33,591 nt of DNA from Candidatus Methanomethylicia archaeon (GCA_038845975.1 JAWBQF010000030.1:1-33591); one strand, 5' to 3'; positions 15,054 through 33,591 are shown, numbered from the stretch's first letter. Notes: generated by a model from the letters alone, not told the origin. Made by a program: numbers and translations.

Positions 15054-15140
15054 AGCCCGGTGGAGACTATCGCCGATTGTAGTGGCCAAGCATAGCAGGC
15101 TCTGGCCCTGCTGACGGGAGTTCGAATCTCCCCCGGGCTA
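15054..15140 (+). tRNA. tRNA-Gln(CUG) with a 14-nt intron at 10/11 (15064-15077)
   Basis: AGCCCGG/CCGGGCT acceptor, GCAGG-CT CTG GC-CCTGC anticodon arm, GGGAG-TTCGAAT-CTCCC T arm. Removing AGACTATCGCCGAT restores the D stem GTGT/GCAT; BHB central helix CGGT/GCCG. Confidence 0.9.
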
Positions 15141-15309
15141 CTATCTCATGATTTCTTTTAATGGTTTACTTGCCATAATAATTATTATGAAACTTTACTT
15201 TAGATAGTTAAAATTATGGTTTTTTAATTTCTCTAGAGAATCAAGACATCGTTTGTATTTATTTTAGTGACACTAATAATTAATAAATACTTACAACAAG
15301 TCTGTCAAA

Positions 15310-23957: not shown

Positions 23958-24500
23958 ATGGTGTTATTATTGTCTTCAAATCCTTATATATGTAAGTTAA
24001 CAATTGATGGCGGATTGATAGAAGATGTAGATGCTATAAATAACCTCTATCATAATGATTTCTATGGTGAATTATCCGAAGGCATTTTAAAGCTTTTATC
24101 TGTTGAGGTACTATATCTAGAGCAGAAAGGCGTACTTATTGTTATTAATAATAAGAACCTAACTCTCTCTTTTGAGGATCTTATTAACTTCTATAGAAGA
24201 TATGATGAGGTTATTTGGGAGCGTTATTCACTATATCTTGACTTAAAACAGAGGGGGTATATTGTTAAAGGAGGTTTCAGTAATCGACTAGAATTTAGAG
24301 TATACAAAAGGGGGGCGTTTCCTCTCCATGATCCTGCAAATTTTATAGTAGTAGGAGTATTAGAAGGAAGACCCCTCTCACTTGAAGAACTCGATAAAAT
24401 AACAAGACAAACTAGAATTTCAAACAAGGAGTTAATCTTAGCTGTTATCGATAGAGAAGGGGGAATTACTTACTATGAAGTTGGCCTCATTACACTTTAA
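23958..24500 (+). CDS. endA: tRNA splicing endonuclease subunit, probably the structural (beta) subunit
   Basis: E.LYL, Y.DLK.RGY.VK, FRVY.RG, K.LILAVID and DREG.ITYYEV. The KYG.DF motif and the catalytic His are not conserved in position. Confidence 0.85.
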   Translation: MVLLLSSNPYICKLTIDGGLIEDVDAINNLYHNDFYGELSEGILKLLSVEVLYLEQKGVLIVINNKNLTLSFEDLINFYRRYDEVIWERYSLYLDLKQRGYIVKGGFSNRLEFRVYKRGAFPLHDPANFIVVGVLEGRPLSLEELDKITRQTRISNKELILAVIDREGGITYYEVGLITL

Positions 24501-25301: not shown

Positions 25302-25387
25302 GGGCCCGTAGCGCAGTATGGAAGCGCGTCGGCCTCCTATTAATTGAAGAAAGCCGTTGGTCGTGGGTTCAAATCCCACCGGGCCCG
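25302..25387 (+). tRNA. tRNA-Arg(CCU) with a 12-nt intron at 37/38 (25340-25351)
   Basis: GGGCCCG/CGGGCCC acceptor, GCGC D stem, loop CT CCT A|TTAATTGAAGAA|A, GTGGG-TTCAAAT-CCCAC T arm. Confidence 0.9.
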
Positions 25388-26127: not shown

Positions 26128-26258
26128 GCGGGGGTTCCCGAGCCAGGATAAAGGGGCAGAATTGTTATGCCCAGGACTTAAGATCAATGTTATAAAGAGG
26201 TTGGATATACGAAATCCTGTGGCATAGGCCTTCGTGGGTTCAAATCCCACCCCCCGCA
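26128..26258 (+). tRNA. tRNA-Leu(UAA) with two introns: 29/30 (26160-26174) and 37/38 (26183-26213)
   Basis: GCGGGGG/CCCCCGC-A acceptor and a long variable arm. Intron 1 BHB helix GGGC/GCCC; spliced arm CAGGA-CT TAA GA-TCCTG. Confidence 0.88.
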
Positions 26259-27620
26259 TCAAATTGAAAAATTATAGAAGCCTCAAACCATGTATGACGA
26301 GACGTTTTCAAAATATTTGAACCCTATACCTCATGTGTACTATTATGTATGTAAAATACTACCATTTTCAGTCCCTCAAAATTAAGAATTACTAACTGAT
26401 CAAACACTAATTTAGTGAGAAATAGATTTAATTTAGATCAATTATAGCATGGCTATTATTATATTTATTATTCTCATAACTCAGCAATTTTATAGTATTT
26501 GGATATGCATGTTTTCAACATCTTACTATAAGGACAGAGCTTTTTATTATCCTCCCAAAATCTTTCTAAATTCATAGAGCTGTTTATTTAGGAATTTTAT
26601 AGTATTTCCAATTTCTTATTGTATGTTAGATTATTTGCTATTAATATAATCTAGTATTCTTTACCTTCCCTATTTATGATAAATTTATGGCTAAAGCTAT
26701 TAGGTTTATTAGGAATAGAGTTCTCATTTACTCTAGTTATTTATATATTTCGTTTGTTGTAAATACATTAAGAAGATTAAAGCTATCTATGGTTCTAATA
26801 TAATTGTATTAAGTGTATGCTCATTATTATATGAGGTAAAATACTGAATTTAGTGAAGTATATAGTTTAGAGATTAGAATTAGTAAAGAAAATACCAACA
26901 ATAGAAATAACTATTCGATAATTACATATTACCAAACTATAGTAAGATTTTTTTAAGAGGATTAGCAAATATGAGAAGCCATTCATATAGTGCTTTAAGG
27001 CTACTTAAGCTAGAGGGAAAAAACACTCTCATTAATACTAAGTTTATAGAGGCAAAATTTAGATAGGCTGTAAGGCTAAATACTCTACAGAGAAGATACA
27101 TAAACTTCCTACACATTGATTCAGCCAATAAGCATGATCCGACAATCATAGGAGGGAGAGCATAATTCAATTGATAAAAACTAGATTTTACACTAAATTT
27201 GAAGGGGAAGTAGTAATTTTAGAGTTAAACTTCTAGGCTTTCCTAAAAGTAGATGTAGTAAAGGATACAGGCATAAAGATAAGCCTATATTCATTGAAAG
27301 AGGAAATTAGAAAACGTATCAATCGACAAATGCAAATGGGAAAATATTAGGGAAGATGATTGAGAGAAGAGTTGAGCAGAAATCAAACATTATATAGATG
27401 AATTATTGTCATGTAGTATAAGCTAAGAGGATAAAATCAGTTATTAATAGTAAATAGCTCAAAGACAAGTGTACAAGAGATGATCTGCATATTGATAATC
27501 ATGAGAATAGATTTAGCATGAAGACTCTATTAATACATAGAGGAGTATTGAAAGATGACTTAAAGACGTGCTTAACTCATTCAAACTTAGAGGTCTATGA
27601 GCTCTAGGTATGAGAATATA

Positions 27621-28328
27621 GATACTGCTACTTTCAGGTTTATGTTATTGCTGGTGGTTTTCCTAGGTTTTGATGAGGTCTTATCCAGTTATACCAGAGT
27701 ATGAAGAAGTTTAGGAATAGGTTGATCTTTATGAGTTTCTTGTCTGAAGTTGTGTAGAATCTTTTGCTCGATCCTTAAGTGTTCGAAACCATCTCTCTAT
27801 CGTATTCCTAGCGAAGGTTTGACATCTCAATCTTAAACCATGGTTATACAATGCCTGGGGATACCAAGGCCCCTACTAGGATTAGAGGCTTATTAACACA
27901 TGCCTTAAGGACTTGCTTCAGGAAGAGATCTGCATCCAGTATGCTTCTCCGCCATGAAGCCCTTACTGCTAGAAGCTCTTGGTCTTAACGTCTATTGCAG
28001 CCCACACGTAGAAATGATGCCCAGCCTCCTCAGCTTCACCTCATCAATAGCTACCATCCCCTATTGGCTTCACATCAATCCTTACGCTTCAATCTTTTGA
28101 ACCCAACACCATACAGATACATGGCCCACATGACAACTCGGCAGACGTAAGCAATATCCCTATAGCTAAGCCCAGCCATGTAGAGAATACATGCTCTCAA
28201 CTTCTTTTTAAGCGAAACCTTATCTGAAAACTCCTTTATCTCTTAGGGCTTTGAGAAGCTTACCTATTAATATCACCTCCAAAGAATAACTTCTCAAAGC
28301 CCCTCAAAAATCTAAAAGTAACAGTATC
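27621..28328 (-). mobile_element. IS6-family element with a disrupted transposase
   Basis: TIRs GATACTGCTACTTT / AAAGTAACAGTATC (13/14) and direct repeat GAGAATATA (27612-27620 / 28329-28337). Fragments AIDEVK, YVWAAIDVKT, GPWY and IERWFRTLK. Confidence 0.88.
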
Positions 28329-29042: not shown

Positions 29043-29788
29043 CTTTCTGTTTGCAGTTCTTCTTCACTGAAATATAATAAATACTTAACTTTACCATTAA
29101 GATCCTTAATATTTCTCCATCTATCTCCAATAGCTATCAAAGTAAATATTCCAACGATTTCTGCTCTTGCCTTTTTAATAATTTTAAGTAATGCGTACTG
29201 CTGTGCTCCATCTCTAATTATATCATCAACTATAAGTATATCATCTCCTCTTTTCAGAAGTTCCTTAGGAATATATAACTCAAATTCTATTGCCGCCTCA
29301 TTAATCTTTACTACTTCTTCTATGAATTTTTTAATACCTACTTCTCTATTTTTCTTTGCATATACTACCGGTACGGAAAGTTCGCGCGCTACCTGAACAG
29401 CTAGAGGTATTCCATCTGCTGCTATAGTAGCTACTTTACTTATTCTCTTGCCTGAGTATGTTTCAACTACAAACCTTGAAATATGTCTTAGTAGTATTAT
29501 ATCGGATAGAATTTTAGAATTATCAATATATCCATCACGTGTTGTTAATTTATTCCTTAAAAGCTTATCTAATGGAAACATTTCAAGTAGTTTACTCATT
29601 AACTTTTCTGTCCTCATAGGATTTGGCATTATATCTCCTGAAGCATAACGGTTTAAAGTACTTGCCGAAATTTTAGTCTGTTTTGCTATAAAACTGTAAC
29701 TATATTCATTCTTAATTAAACGTAATAAATCTATAACATAAAGCTGCTTACACATCAAATCATATTTTTTTTGTTTCATTAAGATCAT
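29039..29788 (-). CDS. HTH-fused phosphoribosyltransferase (PurR/Apt-like regulator)
   Basis: N-terminal HTH (YS.IA..T.I..STL.RY..G...P), ADGIPLA and the PRPP-binding ILIVDDIIR.G motif. Confidence 0.8.
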   Translation of the reverse strand: MILMKQKKYDLMCKQLYVIDLLRLIKNEYSYSFIAKQTKISASTLNRYASGDIMPNPMRTEKLMSKLLEMFPLDKLLRNKLTTRDGYIDNSKILSDIILLRHISRFVVETYSGKRISKVATIAADGIPLAVQVARELSVPVVYAKKNREVGIKKFIEEVVKINEAAIEFELYIPKELLKRGDDILIVDDIIRDGAQQYALLKIIKKARAEIVGIFTLIAIGDRWRNIKDLNGKVKYLLYFSEEELQTES

Positions 29789-30239
29789 CTCAAATCAAAT
29801 TAAAGTAGTAATATCTCTTAGGTAACTTAAATATATGTTGCTTAAATAAATTGTCCTTAGCAATTCGTGAAATTTATACGCTTTTTATCCATGGTTTCCT
29901 GAAAATCCTATTGTTTAAGTTGACTATAAAATCCTATCTCTAAGGGTTTCAGATAGGTTAATAGAGATTGTGAACTTAGCATGTTTATATTTCTGACCAT
30001 ATTTCATCAAATCCCAATTTAAGGCTTGAATTAACTGTCAATATATAGAATACTAAGTCTCTTTGACTGTCAATTATCTCCACGAGCTAAATAATTAACC
30101 ACAATGCTTTTACATATAAGTCCACAAAGTCGCTCTAATAGACGTAGCAACTTAGCGCACTATAGTTTTCTTCTTAAGCTGCCAGGTCCGCTCTAATTAA
30201 CGATAAATTTTTAAACTCCACGTATTTAAATAATATAGT

Positions 30240-30410
30240 CCCCGGGTAGCTCAGTCATGATGGAGTAATGGTAGGGAATCCCAGTAAAGAGCGATCGGCT
30301 GTAGATAATTATACATGGACCTTGCCTACTCAGGCGGGATGAAAATGTATCAGCTGAAACCGATTGGTCGGGGGTTCGAAATCTGTAGTACGAAAATCCC
30401 TCCCCGGGGA
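30240..30410 (+). tRNA. tRNA-Tyr(GUA) with four introns: 15/16 (30255-30268), D loop ~20a/20b (30274-30286), 37/38 (30305-30358), 59/60 (30381-30396)
   Basis: C1-G72 acceptor CCCCGGG/CCCGGGG-A, GCTC/GAGC D stem, ATCGG-CT GTA G|A-CCGAT anticodon arm, GGGGG/CCCTC T stem. BHB helices GCTC/GAGT, GTGG/CCAG (3/4), CTGT/GCTG (3/4) and TTCG/CGAA. Confidence 0.85.
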
Positions 30411-30641
30411 CTACTTTAGCTAAATTAAGTTTTTTATAATAAGGGGCTTATTATTTTATCTTAACATAACTAACATAAGATCATGTTTAGCTCTTTAAAA
30501 GGTTAATTTTTATTTCCTTTTAATATCTTTTTAGTTTTCCATAAATGAGAGTTGCTATAAAGAAAACAATTTTATTTTCTTCTAAAAATCTTTGATTACT
30601 GAACATTTGTAATGATTATTTACACATCATTACTTATAAAA

Positions 30642-30745
30642 TGGCGCCCCGGCCGAGATCTATTCATAACTTTTGAACTCGGGCCTGGCGGGTGACAGCC
30701 GCCAATACTGAACCGGGCTATACTCGGCATTAACTCTACCGGGGC
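30642..30745 (-). tRNA. tRNA-Asp(GUC) with encoded CCA and introns at 10/11 (30723-30735) and 58/59 (30660-30672)
   Basis: GCCCCGG/CCGGGGC-G-CCA and GGCGG-CT GTC AC-CCGCC; BHB helices CGGT/GCCG and GTTC/GAAT. Confidence 0.9.
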
Positions 30746-30777
30746 TTGCCGGGGCAAGATAATGTTTTCCTTATGAA

Positions 30778-30785
30778 TTTTTAAA
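30778..30785 (-). promoter_or_regulatory. putative TATA box of tRNA-Asp
   Basis: AAAAG-TTTAAAAA on the minus strand, starting 30 nt upstream of 30755. Confidence 0.6.
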
Positions 30786-31171
30786 CTTTTCTACCTAAAC
30801 TCTTATCCTGCCAACTCTTGAAGTTTCTACTTGAAAGTATTCTAACTCTGTACTGGTTATGATTTGTGATGGATCATTTAAGAGAGTAGGAACACAATCA
30901 TATTTGTACTTCAAGTCCTACTAACTACTTCTTAAATGTAGTTTGAGAAAAACAAGTAAGCTTTTTAACTATAGTTGTGAGGATATACGTAAGTGAAATC
31001 ATAGATTTAGTGAGATTACATCGATTACTCATATTTGTCAGGAAATATAGTTGATAACTATACCACTAGATATAATCCATTCGCTGTATGGATATAGGTT
31101 ACATTTAAGAGTGTAGGAAAAATTGGTTTGCATTCATTTATCATTTTCACATAATGATCTCCATGCATACA

Positions 31172-31849
31172 GATACTGTCAAGTTGTTGGCATTGCTGGC
31201 AGCCTCTTTAGGGTTTGATGGGGCCTTATGAAGTTGTACCATAGGACGAAGAGCCTTATGAAGAGTTTATCTTGAATATAGACTTTACTGGAAGTTGTTA
31301 AAGAAGTGTCTAGTCCTAGCTTTCATTGTAGAACCATCGTTCAATACGGTTCCCCCGCGAAGGTTCTATGAATCCATTTAAGGCCTGAAGGGCTTCAGGA
31401 TACTGGGGCCACGAGGATGATGGCTATTCATACATGCTTCCAGAACCTTCCTCATGAAGGCTTCATGGAGGATATTCCTCCGCCATGAAACCCATAGCTA
31501 GAAGCTCACGCGTATCGACATCTATAGCAGCCCATACGTATCATCATTCCCATCAGCCTTAATCTTAGTCTCATCGACGGCTACCATACACCTAGGCTTA
31601 GCTCCAACGTTAACGGTCACGCGTTCCAGCTTCTAACCAAAGCCTTACGGCCTCGTAGCTGCACGGCACAAACCCCAGAACGTAGATTATTTCTCTGTAG
31701 CTCAGGCCAGCCATATAGCAGAACAGCCCTAACCCTCATCCGAAAACCTATCAATCCTAACAAACCACTATCCTCAAAGGCTTTAATAAGCCACCTAATA
31801 GACCTCCAAAAGCAGCTTCCCAAACCCCTAAAAATAACTTGACAGTATC
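31172..31849 (-). mobile_element. IS6-family element with a disrupted transposase
   Basis: Perfect 14-bp TIR GATACTGTCAAGTT (31172-31185 / 31836-31849) and direct repeat ATGCATACA (31163-31171 / 31850-31858). Fragments VAVDETKIK, YVWAAIDVDTRELLA and FVLWYNFIR.HQTL. Confidence 0.9.
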
Positions 31850-32028
31850 ATGCATACAAGTCCTAAAGATTTTATGGGAGAAGTAAGATGTTAAAATCGT
31901 CATTACTAATCATTTTATGATGTTATGTTTATGCTTATAAGACTAATAGATTAAAACGTTTATCAGGCTGATAAGTGTTAGTATTATAGTTTTTTAAAGG
32001 TTTGAGTATGTTGTTTTAGTTATTGAAC

Positions 32029-32812
32029 TCATATGAAAATTTTCAGCAGCATTAGTATGTATGCTACTTGTATTAATGCTAGTCTCTCTTATATCATGGT
32101 TATTCTTCTGAATGATACCAGCTACGTGAAGAATCTTTCAACAGCGCTTCTCATGCTCTTATACACTTTCTTATCGAGCCTGTATGGTCTTCCATGCTTA
32201 GGTTTACGTCTACTCTTCGGATCTCCTCTATATTTCGCTCTTACTCCTCTACACCTAAAGTATGCTTTAACCTCTTAGTATTGTATGCAGAATCATCCAC
32301 AACCCCTCTAGGTCTAGTTCTAGGCCTACCCTACCACATTCAACCATTACATTTTCTAGGAGTGGTATGAATTGGTTTGATTCGTTTCATTGAGTCTCCT
32401 ATTTGAATGTTTAACGGTAGGTCTCCACTTGATATAAGCACATGTATTTTCATACCTTTAATATGCTTATATCCATCATAGCCAACTAGCCCCTATCTTC
32501 CCTAGCCCTAATAGTTATGCTATCAACAGAAACTCTATCAAGGCTATCCATAGAGTATCTCCTATCTATTAAGGTTTTGAATAGATTAGTCCATACTCCC
32601 TTAAAACTCCAATGCTTAAACCTATCCAAGCATTCTTATAAGAACCATACTTATTGGACATATCCATTCAATGGCAACCAGTAACAAGCACATAAAGAAT
32701 ATCATTCAATACATGTCTATCATCAACCCTAGGCCTATCAGTCCTAACCCTAGGAGAAAGTAAAAGACCTAATAAGCTTCCACTCATAATCACTAATCTC
32801 ACAAAACTCCAT
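32029..32812 (-). pseudogene. IS5-family transposase pseudogene (DUF4096-type N-terminus)
   Basis: Fragments ISDYEWKLI, RPRVDDR.VLN.ILYVL.TGC, VSVDS.TI.A and RSAVERFF..L..FRRI, with many stops and frameshifts. Confidence 0.85.
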
Positions 32813-33217
32813 AATAAAAATAAAAACTTTACTCAGAAACATTTAAATAGTTTCCAGACTAATTCATTTTATATTGCATTTTGAGCTATAAGAGTTTAAG
32901 ACTTGTGAGAAAATTATTATTTATGTGAATAATGATCTATCATAATTAAGAGATATGGAAAACTTATATGAAATTTCAAAACACTAGTGGCAAAGACGAA
33001 CTATAAGAATATGAAGTACACATATAAGGTTCAAAATAGAGGATCATTTTAACTAAGAGTTATTAGATAAATGATAAAAATGGGGCTTTAAAGGCTCTAC
33101 CTTTATGGTAAACAATCAGCAACTGAAAGTTGTTATAAGAACGATAGAAGCTTTGCTTTTTATGGCAAGCAAATAAACATTCACTCACTGAAAGGGGTGG
33201 AAAGTGAAAAATTACTA

Positions 33218-33315
33218 CGGGCCCGGTGGGATTTGAACCCACGACCACTGGGTTTCTTCAGGTTAAAAGCCCAGCGCTCTACCTAACTGAGCATCCCGTT
33301 TAGTATTACGGGCCC
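33218..33315 (-). tRNA. tRNA-Lys(UUU) with introns at 9/10 (33293-33306) and 37/38 (33254-33263)
   Basis: GGGCCCG/CGGGCCC-G, GCTC/GAGC and CTGGG-CT TTT A|ACCTGAAGAA|A-CCCAG; BHB helices CCCG/CGGG and CTTT/GAAG. Confidence 0.9.
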
Positions 33316-33349
33316 CTCCCCCGAGCCCATCAATGTTATTATAAGCCTA

Positions 33350-33357
33350 AATATATT
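33350..33357 (-). promoter_or_regulatory. putative TATA box of tRNA-Lys
   Basis: AATATATT on the minus strand after AAAG, starting 29 nt upstream of 33328. Confidence 0.5.
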
Positions 33358-33591
33358 CTTTATGGTATTACTAAGGAGCTTGTGAACTTTAGCTTTATTT
33401 ATTGCTTCCCTTATTTATGGTAGTAGTATGAGTAAGGTCATAGGCTTATTATGGATGGAACTCTATTTGCTCTAGCTTTATGTTGCTATATATTTCTGTT
33501 CATGTTTGTCTAGTATGGTTTCAGATATTTTGTTTATTTTGTAGGGTTGTATTTGTTTTATGGTTTATCTTAAGCTTCTATTGAGTTTGAT

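Follow-up and report, generated by a model that had tools for sequence, protein, structure and literature searches.

Organization of the tRNA-Tyr locus

The analyzed sequence, referred to here as the window, is the whole 33,591-nt stretch of DNA from an uncultured Candidatus Methanomethylicia archaeon of hot springs (GCA_038845975.1 JAWBQF010000030.1:1-33591). It carries a tRNA-Tyr(GUA) gene of 171 nt at positions 30240-30410 on the plus strand, and the sequence is as a first-pass annotation of this interval had described it. Four insertions interrupt the gene at Sprinzl positions 15/16, 20/21, 37/38 and 59/60. The 99 intron nucleotides (14 + 15 + 54 + 16) account for 58% of its length and separate exons of 15, 4, 17, 22 and 14 nt. 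The G+C content was 65% in the exons and 39% in the introns, while that of the genome was 34%. The parts of the locus are the following.

30199..30214, plus strand: A/T-rich TATA-like box AACGATAAATTTTTAA, likely promoter, centered about 30 nt upstream of the mature 5' end
30240..30254, plus strand: exon 1, 15 nt; acceptor 5' strand, U8, A9, D-stem 5' strand, A14 and G15
30255..30268, plus strand: intron 1, 14 nt, site 15/16; relaxed BHB of the HBh' type
30269..30272, plus strand: exon 2, a 4-nt micro-exon, UGGU; U16, G18, G19 and U20; invariant in six homologues
30273..30287, plus strand: intron 2, most likely 15 nt, site 20/21; hBHBh' after removal of intron 1
30288..30304, plus strand: exon 3, 17 nt; A21, D-stem 3' strand, G26, anticodon-stem 5' strand, C32, U33, G34, U35, A36 and G37
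30305..30358, plus strand: intron 3, 54 nt, canonical site 37/38; BHB, internally structured, conserved GAUGA motif
30359..30380, plus strand: exon 4, 22 nt; A38, anticodon-stem 3' strand, variable loop, T-stem 5' strand and U54 to A59; invariant in six homologues
30381..30396, plus strand: intron 4, 16 nt, T-loop site 59/60; BHB
30397..30410, plus strand: exon 5, 14 nt; U60, T-stem 3' strand, acceptor 3' strand and discriminator A73; invariant in six homologues
30430..30435, plus strand: T6 run, possible archaeal transcription stop

The acceptor stem pairs CCCCGGG with CCCGGGG and is followed by A73; the 3'-terminal CCA is not encoded. Exon 1 corresponds to positions 1-15 of tRNA-Tyr in five relatives without a single difference, and it is also invariant in the six homologues. 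The G18G19 pair of the D-loop is supplied by the 4-nt exon 2. All five exons are collinear on one strand within the 171 nt, an arrangement different from that of a split or permuted gene.

The 16-nt A/T-rich box, which lies 26-41 nt upstream of the gene, was unchanged in all six homologues, compared with 18 variable columns among 45 in the 5' flank. Its position and composition make it a likely archaeal promoter. Conservation was poor in the 3' flank, where 20 of 30 columns varied. From 29788 to 33591 the window contains no ORF of at least 120 aa. Two degraded repeats, at about 27900-28100 and 31440-31570, resemble each other and lack long open frames; they look like decayed copies of one repeated element, possibly derived from a transposase.

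Conservation among homologues

Six distinct homologues were compared: the window gene, the gene of the congener G001 and four genes on metagenome contigs. In G001, the sole congener in the collection (62% complete), the gene is 94% identical and likewise carries the four insertions. When metagenome contigs were scanned for the pattern, six loci were obtained, and four of these were diverged homologues that each carry four insertions. The other two, L140 (identical to the window) and L139 (a chance match in G+C-rich coding DNA), were set aside.

Of the 72 exon columns, only 1 was variable; the introns had 22 variable columns among 99, together with 3 indel columns, and the flanks 38 among 75. 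Fisher's exact test gave p = 2.6e-5 for exons versus introns and p = 1.1e-4 for introns versus flanks, values that overstate independence since the six sequences are related. Variable columns numbered 1 of 14 in intron 1, 4 of 15 in intron 2, 13 of 54 in intron 3 and 4 of 16 in intron 4, and all 3 indel columns fell in the hairpin loop of intron 2. The sole variable exon column is position 27 in exon 3, which changes from A to G in G001 and keeps its pair with U43. Likewise, the sole change in a central helix, A to G in intron 4, preserves the pair as U-G. All homologues keep all four splice motifs.

A further strain, found in two hot-spring runs, has an identical gene (171/171 nt) in flanks that differ by 7 substitutions and 4 insertion events. 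No joints of intron-less alleles were seen in the contigs of four DNA runs that share part of the locus. Of the sequencing runs listed, none annotated as RNA contained the locus, a result with no bearing on its expression.

Spliced product and alternative readings

The first-pass annotation had proposed introns in the D, anticodon and T loops, with 97 nt (14 + 13 + 54 + 16) removed to leave a 74-nt cloverleaf. All four insertions were confirmed, two of them in the D-loop, and ARAGORN calls the 74-nt product tRNA-Tyr(GTA). The lengths need revision, as intron 2 is likelier to be 15 nt and the product 72 nt. Removal of 99 nt (14 + 15 + 54 + 16) gives a product that ARAGORN also calls tRNA-Tyr(GTA), and in gap-free alignments with the mature tRNA-Tyr of six relatives, 64-66 of its 72 bases are identical. 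Thus, a canonical cloverleaf is obtained once the introns are taken out. The spliced products carry C1-G72, A73, U8, A14, G18G19, U33 and UUCGAAU with every stem paired, and C1-G72 together with A73 presumably represent the archaeal Tyr identity elements.

The boundaries in the D region were analyzed by enumerating all deletions between A14 and G22 that comprise one or two segments, each 9 nt or longer. D-loops of 7-11 nt with the form A-R-N(1-4)-GG-N(1-3)-A were accepted. One-deletion solutions numbered zero in each of the six homologues, so that an exit of both D-loop insertions as one intron, a case raised beforehand against the four-intron structure, would not leave a D-loop with G18G19. 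Among the 344 two-deletion solutions, the highest BHB score (15, with the runner-up at 12) belonged to removal of gene positions 16-29 and 34-48. This solution leaves the D-loop AGTGGTA and ranked first in all six homologues. The D-loop of six relatives is also 7 nt long, AGTGGTA in five and AGAGGTA in one. By alignment, the window gene is longer than those of the relatives by 29 nt in the D region and by 16 nt in the T-loop; since 29 is the sum of 14 and 15, a length of 15 nt rather than 13 nt is suggested for intron 2. Intron 2 most likely spans 30273-30287 instead of the 13-nt interval 30274-30286 given at first.

With that 13-nt interval, the product would be 74 nt long, its D-loop would be AGUGGUAAA (9 nt) and the micro-exon would measure 5 nt. 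Acceptance of this product by ARAGORN and a central helix that is likewise paired at 3 of 4 positions speak for it, and the bases on which the two versions disagree (A34 and A47-A49) never vary among the homologues, so conservation does not discriminate between them. We nevertheless regard the shorter intron as unlikely: it is not among the best 12 of the 344 two-deletion solutions, it is outranked by the 15-nt solution in 6/6 homologues, it places an A-A mismatch beside a G-G mismatch between the outer and central helices, and it requires a 2-nt insertion relative to the D-loops of all six directly compared relatives, to which the 72-nt product aligns without a gap. A three-intron gene would result if the segment 30255-30287 were removed whole or kept as an expanded D-loop. 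Both the motif-free spliced alignment to a relative's tRNA-Tyr and MAFFT do fuse the D-loop insertions, the former into a single 29-nt gap. However, no single deletion leaves a 7-11-nt D-loop with A14, R15, GG and A21 in any of the six homologues, and the sole fitting GG sits in the invariant 4-nt block that separates the two segments. We know of no working elbow whose D-loop has 29-33 extra bases, and we give a three-intron gene almost no credence.

The locus could also be a decaying or non-functional copy, with the working tRNA-Tyr gene either split elsewhere or located in the 7% of the genome that is unassembled. The incompleteness of the genome and the degraded transposase-like repeats nearby are compatible with such decay. 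However, exon columns are far more conserved than those of introns and flanks across several metagenomes, the upstream A/T box is invariant, the identity elements and tertiary-pair bases are all intact, and the four motifs are present in every homologue. Fully paired stems and the exon-flank contrast are likewise unlike a tRNA pseudogene, and the four search approaches described below found no second Tyr-like locus. We consider decay very improbable. The preferred reading, to which we assign a probability of roughly 0.8, is a functional and probably single-copy tRNA-Tyr(GUA) gene with four BHB introns that would be spliced by the endonuclease and RtcB.

BHB motifs at the four predicted splice sites

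The motifs were scored according to the geometry of the structural literature, in which the cut falls after the second base of each 3-nt bulge and the bulges lie 4 bp apart. The pairing at each intron was as follows.

Intron 1: central helix GCUC/GAGU, 4/4; no outer helix; inner helix 2 bp; bulges AGU and AAU
Intron 2, after removal of intron 1: central helix 3/4; outer helix 4 bp, the D stem; inner hairpin 2-3 bp
Intron 3: central helix 3/4, mismatch at U33; outer helix 5 bp, the anticodon stem; inner helix 1 bp
Intron 4: central helix UUCG/CGAA, 4/4; outer helix 5 bp, the T stem; inner helix 1 bp; bulges AAA and AAU

Full central helices at 15/16 and 59/60, with three of four pairs at intron 2 and at 37/38, had been claimed previously, and the scoring returned the same counts. 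In the primary transcript, intron 2 has a 3/4 central helix with 1 outer pair. All four introns are bounded by BHB motifs, that of intron 1 solely in the relaxed HBh' form. As a chance control, 20000 random genome placements of the same length were scored; 978, 25, 142 and 38 of them scored at least as high as introns 1, 2, 3 and 4, respectively. Three of the four motifs are therefore rare by chance, and the motif of intron 1 alone is not.

The inner helices vary between homologues. The 2-bp inner helix of intron 1 loses one pair in G001, and that of intron 3 has 4 bp in the four metagenome homologues. The canonical intron of the relatives has a central-helix mismatch at the same position as that in intron 3. 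Double compensatory changes within the BHB helices were not seen among the six homologues. Because the exon sides do not vary, support for the motifs comes from conservation rather than covariation.

One metagenome copy, L141 (4895-4950), lacks a G in intron 2 at the position of the central-helix mismatch, which reduces the helix to 2/4. L142, otherwise identical to L141, has this G, and its absence may reflect either an assembly error or true variation. For the anticodon region, RNAfold on the isolated anticodon arm and RNAalifold both favored a 7-bp helix between 30295-30301 and 30351-30357. It joins tRNA positions 28-34 to the last bases of intron 3, thereby rivaling the anticodon stem and the BHB register, and it is retained in both lineages through one-sided changes.

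Internal structure of intron 3

The 54-55-nt canonical intron of tRNA-Tyr is conserved across families (window 30305-30358; L014, L015, L017, L018 and L020). Four internal pairs of intron 3 show compensatory changes between the lineage of the window and another family. A conserved GAUGA lies opposite a GGA, AGA or CGA strand, with CUGA or CCGA 11 nt downstream (GGGAUGA-N11-CUGA), and this arrangement suggests a K-turn or a box C'/D-like element.

Archaeal pre-tRNA introns with a K-turn or box C/D element are known, as in the tRNA-Trp intron of Haloferax volcanii. The conserved GAUGA opposite a GA strand is reminiscent of that intron, a resemblance that we treat as a lead only. Unlike box C/D tRNA introns, intron 3 on reading contained no convincing 5' box C and no guide complementary to its own exons. 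A box C/D self-guide in intron 3 was not supported, and Rfam gave no match for the intron.

Two Arg-like tRNA genes elsewhere in the genome (G000:C21:2801-2904 and C10:25224-25319) have a long insertion in the anticodon region with a GGAUGAGGAAGAA motif. These insertions may represent another K-turn-like intron element.

Uniqueness of the locus and tRNA complement of the genome

It had been predicted that standard scanners would probably miss or mis-call this gene, and the two applied here, ARAGORN and Rfam, do miss it. ARAGORN found nothing at this locus, either in the window or in the whole genome with introns allowed. Rfam RF00005 found nothing here at its gathering threshold, nor at E<=10 on a 291-nt slice. 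ARAGORN reported two other tRNAs in the window and 26 genome-wide, none of them Tyr; the Rfam tRNA model reported 3 in the window and 29 genome-wide, this locus not included.

The window contains five more tRNA genes with non-canonical introns.

15054-15143: tRNA-Gln(CTG), non-canonical intron; named His by ARAGORN
25302-25387: tRNA-Arg(CCT), non-canonical intron; named Gly or Trp by ARAGORN
26128-26261: tRNA-Leu(TAA), two introns
30644-30745, minus strand: tRNA-Asp(GTC), two introns, one of them in the T-loop
33219-33315, minus strand: tRNA-Lys(TTT), two introns

The non-canonical introns explain why ARAGORN mis-names several tRNAs of the window. Rfam gave merely partial matches for two of these five genes.

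Whether this is the only tRNA-Tyr gene had been posed as a check. Four approaches, namely ARAGORN, Rfam, blastn-short with the spliced product, and a spliced-alignment census combined with a T-arm/acceptor anchor scan, found no other locus in the 93%-complete genome of 76 contigs. With the 72-nt product, blastn-short returned no second locus above 38/72 bases, and its partial matches were other known tRNAs. The census used 44 mature tRNAs of the relative G021 as references and found 43 loci; the Tyr reference was matched by this locus alone. Four of the 43 loci, over-extended beyond 300 nt, were dropped (C15:8359-8966, C21:19408-19735, C28:10262-11125 and C50:10708-11089). The dropped C21 locus overlaps a real tRNA called by both ARAGORN and Rfam, so the remaining census of 39 misses at least that gene. 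Of the 39 census genes, 38 were found again by the anchor scan, which also gave one unconvincing extra (C34:10371-10528) and is blind to genes whose T or acceptor stem is interrupted. Asn, His and Ile were among several isoacceptors not identified in the census and anchor scan. A scan for G+C islands produced 1063 islands and did not flag the tRNA-Tyr gene. The locus is probably the single-copy tRNA-Tyr of the genome, although at 93% completeness a second copy may lie in the missing part.

Insertions of at least 8 nt were common among the 39 census loci: 7 genes had none, 17 had one, 13 had two and 2 had three, about 50 insertions in total. These counts are approximate since the aligner sets boundaries without regard to motifs, and tRNA-Tyr is scored as three since the aligner merges its two D-loop introns. 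With such an intron-rich genome (39 loci, about 50 insertions), the splicing machinery would be in constant use. The next most interrupted gene found in the genome is an elongator tRNA-Met(CAT) (G000:C50:8071-8182, minus strand), with insertions of 14, 12 and 12 nt near 9/10, 20/21 and 37/38. In intron content, tRNA-Tyr has 99 nt and no other census gene exceeds about 51 nt.

Distribution of the introns in the class

To compare tRNA-Tyr genes within the class, 41 genomes were searched with the locus, and ARAGORN was applied to the retrieved loci. The relatives obtained belong to two other families of the same class, and their tRNA-Tyr has a single canonical intron of 54-60 nt. Intron 3 is homologous to this intron.

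The age of the introns was surveyed by BLAST with a relative's tRNA-Tyr locus against all 62 class genomes in the collection. In 17 genomes, from three other families, the match was collinear over the full length (127-136 nt), which corresponds to the one-intron architecture. In 28 further class genomes the 5' half was matched through the D arm without interruption, and the remaining 15, from other families, showed no match to the relative's locus. Intron 1 was absent in every class relative with a matched D arm, and intron 4 was absent in the relatives. Among the 62 class genomes, introns 1, 2 and 4 were seen only in the lineage of the window.

The 37/38 intron is old, common to families of the class and conserved in sequence. 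Given the 17 genomes of three families with the canonical intron alone, introns 1, 2 and 4 look like lineage-specific gains.

Splicing machinery and proposed precursor processing

The genome encodes two EndA-family proteins (PF01974), one of 183 aa on contig C1 and one of 180 aa in the window. The C1 protein aligns without gaps (E = 5e-51) to the catalytic subunit of the (alpha-beta)2 enzyme of Aeropyrum pernix (3P1Z_B). The alignment covers the catalytic Tyr/His/Lys residues and a lysine that matches K44 of the Crenarchaea-specific loop; in the available text of the source, this loop lysine is reported to confer broad substrate specificity (PMC5829648). The window gene is the following.

23958..24500, plus strand: second, divergent EndA-family gene, 180 aa; PF01974 at 60.5 bits, with matches to solved endonucleases

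Its product is 31% identical to the C1 protein and has a 10-residue gap at the specific loop. These features suggest that it probably serves as the structural (beta) subunit of the splicing endonuclease. A tRNA gene follows this gene at a distance of about 800 nt within the same tRNA-rich stretch. An RtcB ligase is also encoded in the genome (582 bits). By gene content, the endonuclease and the ligase are both present, and their activity is predicted.

From the arrangement of motifs and genes we infer that the locus is transcribed, cleaved, relieved of its introns in a preferred order and used as a tRNA-Tyr gene. The transcript would be a precursor of about 171 nt plus a short leader and trailer. 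An endonuclease of the (alpha-beta)2 heterotetramer type would cut both 3-nt bulges of each motif, RtcB would join the exons, and CCA would be added later. For introns 3 and 4, canonical motifs would already exist in the primary transcript, where the anticodon stem and the T stem, respectively, would form the outer helices. Intron 1 would be recognized through its relaxed HBh' motif, in which the intron segment GAGU replaces the 3' strand of the D stem. Its removal would allow the true D stem to form and to serve as the outer helix for the motif of intron 2. The motif of intron 2 uses the D stem restored by removal of intron 1, which would favor the order of intron 1 before intron 2. The 4-nt micro-exon would stay covalently bound on one side throughout.

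Significance and comparison with known systems

The locus indicates the extent to which a tRNA gene that is essential and apparently single-copy can be fragmented and yet be retained. Common finders (ARAGORN and Rfam, with 26-29 tRNA genes) leave the genome apparently without tRNA-Tyr, and missed tRNA genes of this kind affect inferences on completeness and codon usage in uncultured archaea. Since the close relatives have one intron and this clade has four, the gene offers a clean natural system for the arrival of BHB introns and their order of removal.

The maximum of three introns given in the first-pass annotation matches the available text of the 2014 review by Fujishima and Kanai, which also gives three as the maximum (PMC4033280). 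However, this figure is outdated. The part available of a preprint by Goswami et al. (bioRxiv, October 2026), a computational census, gives up to five introns per gene in Asgard families (10.64898/2026.10.13.758758). According to the available sections of Valentin-Alvarado et al. (2024), over half of the tRNA genes in three Asgard genomes have multiple introns (PMC11291895). The accessible portion of the tRNAscan-SE 2.0 paper mentions two or three introns, some so close together that one goes first (PMC8450103). Among the papers listed, our literature search for four-intron archaeal tRNA genes retrieved nothing relevant beyond a paper on a red alga that counts T-loop introns.

The multi-intron tRNAs of the Thermoproteales, as far as the available text of the sources describes them (Sugahara et al. 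2007/2008; PMC4033280, PMC4090602), are similar in their short introns of BHB, HBh' or hBH type at D- and T-loop sites. They likewise have several introns per gene, with close introns that need ordered removal (PMC8450103, available sections), and an (alpha-beta)2 endonuclease with the Crenarchaea-specific loop (PMC5829648, available text). The gene analyzed here differs in its four introns, compared with the maximum of three in the parts of those reviews at hand, and in its 4-nt micro-exon. It also comes from another, sparsely sampled lineage, represented in the collection by one congener and 62 species representatives of the class. It is perhaps the first four-intron tRNA gene from a Thermoproteota-type lineage.

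The Asgard tRNAs, as covered by the part of the preprint available (10.64898/2026.10.13.758758), share with this gene D-arm insertions that annotators miss and repeated lineage-specific gains at BHB motifs. The present gene belongs to another group of archaea: the H+-pyrophosphatase of the window is most similar (up to 59%) to those of Thermoproteota-type MAGs, and in the protein scan, with the record of the organism itself excluded, its matches were 45-59% identical and of mixed taxa. Furthermore, the present genome has one tRNA gene far more interrupted than the rest, with 99 nt of intron compared with at most 51 nt.

More tentatively, and at less than even odds, the gene may be the first documented TACK case from a hot spring in which a micro-exon needs sequential removal of the D-loop introns, with three dated, stepwise and independent gains in one essential gene and a conserved K-turn-like, protein-binding element in the 54-nt intron that may help folding of the precursor. 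The known mechanism is unchanged, given the tRNA genes with up to five introns reported for Asgard archaea in the available preprint text, and the tRNA-Tyr gene is a striking case of a known phenomenon with no new mechanism. The nuclear tRNA-Ile(UAU) gene of Cyanidioschyzon merolae is likewise interrupted in the D arm, at 37/38 and in the T-loop; it has three introns in a eukaryotic nucleus, and the accessible text reports ordered removal by RT-PCR (PMC3728597). In comparison, the gene described here is an archaeal tRNA gene with four introns whose ordered removal is predicted.
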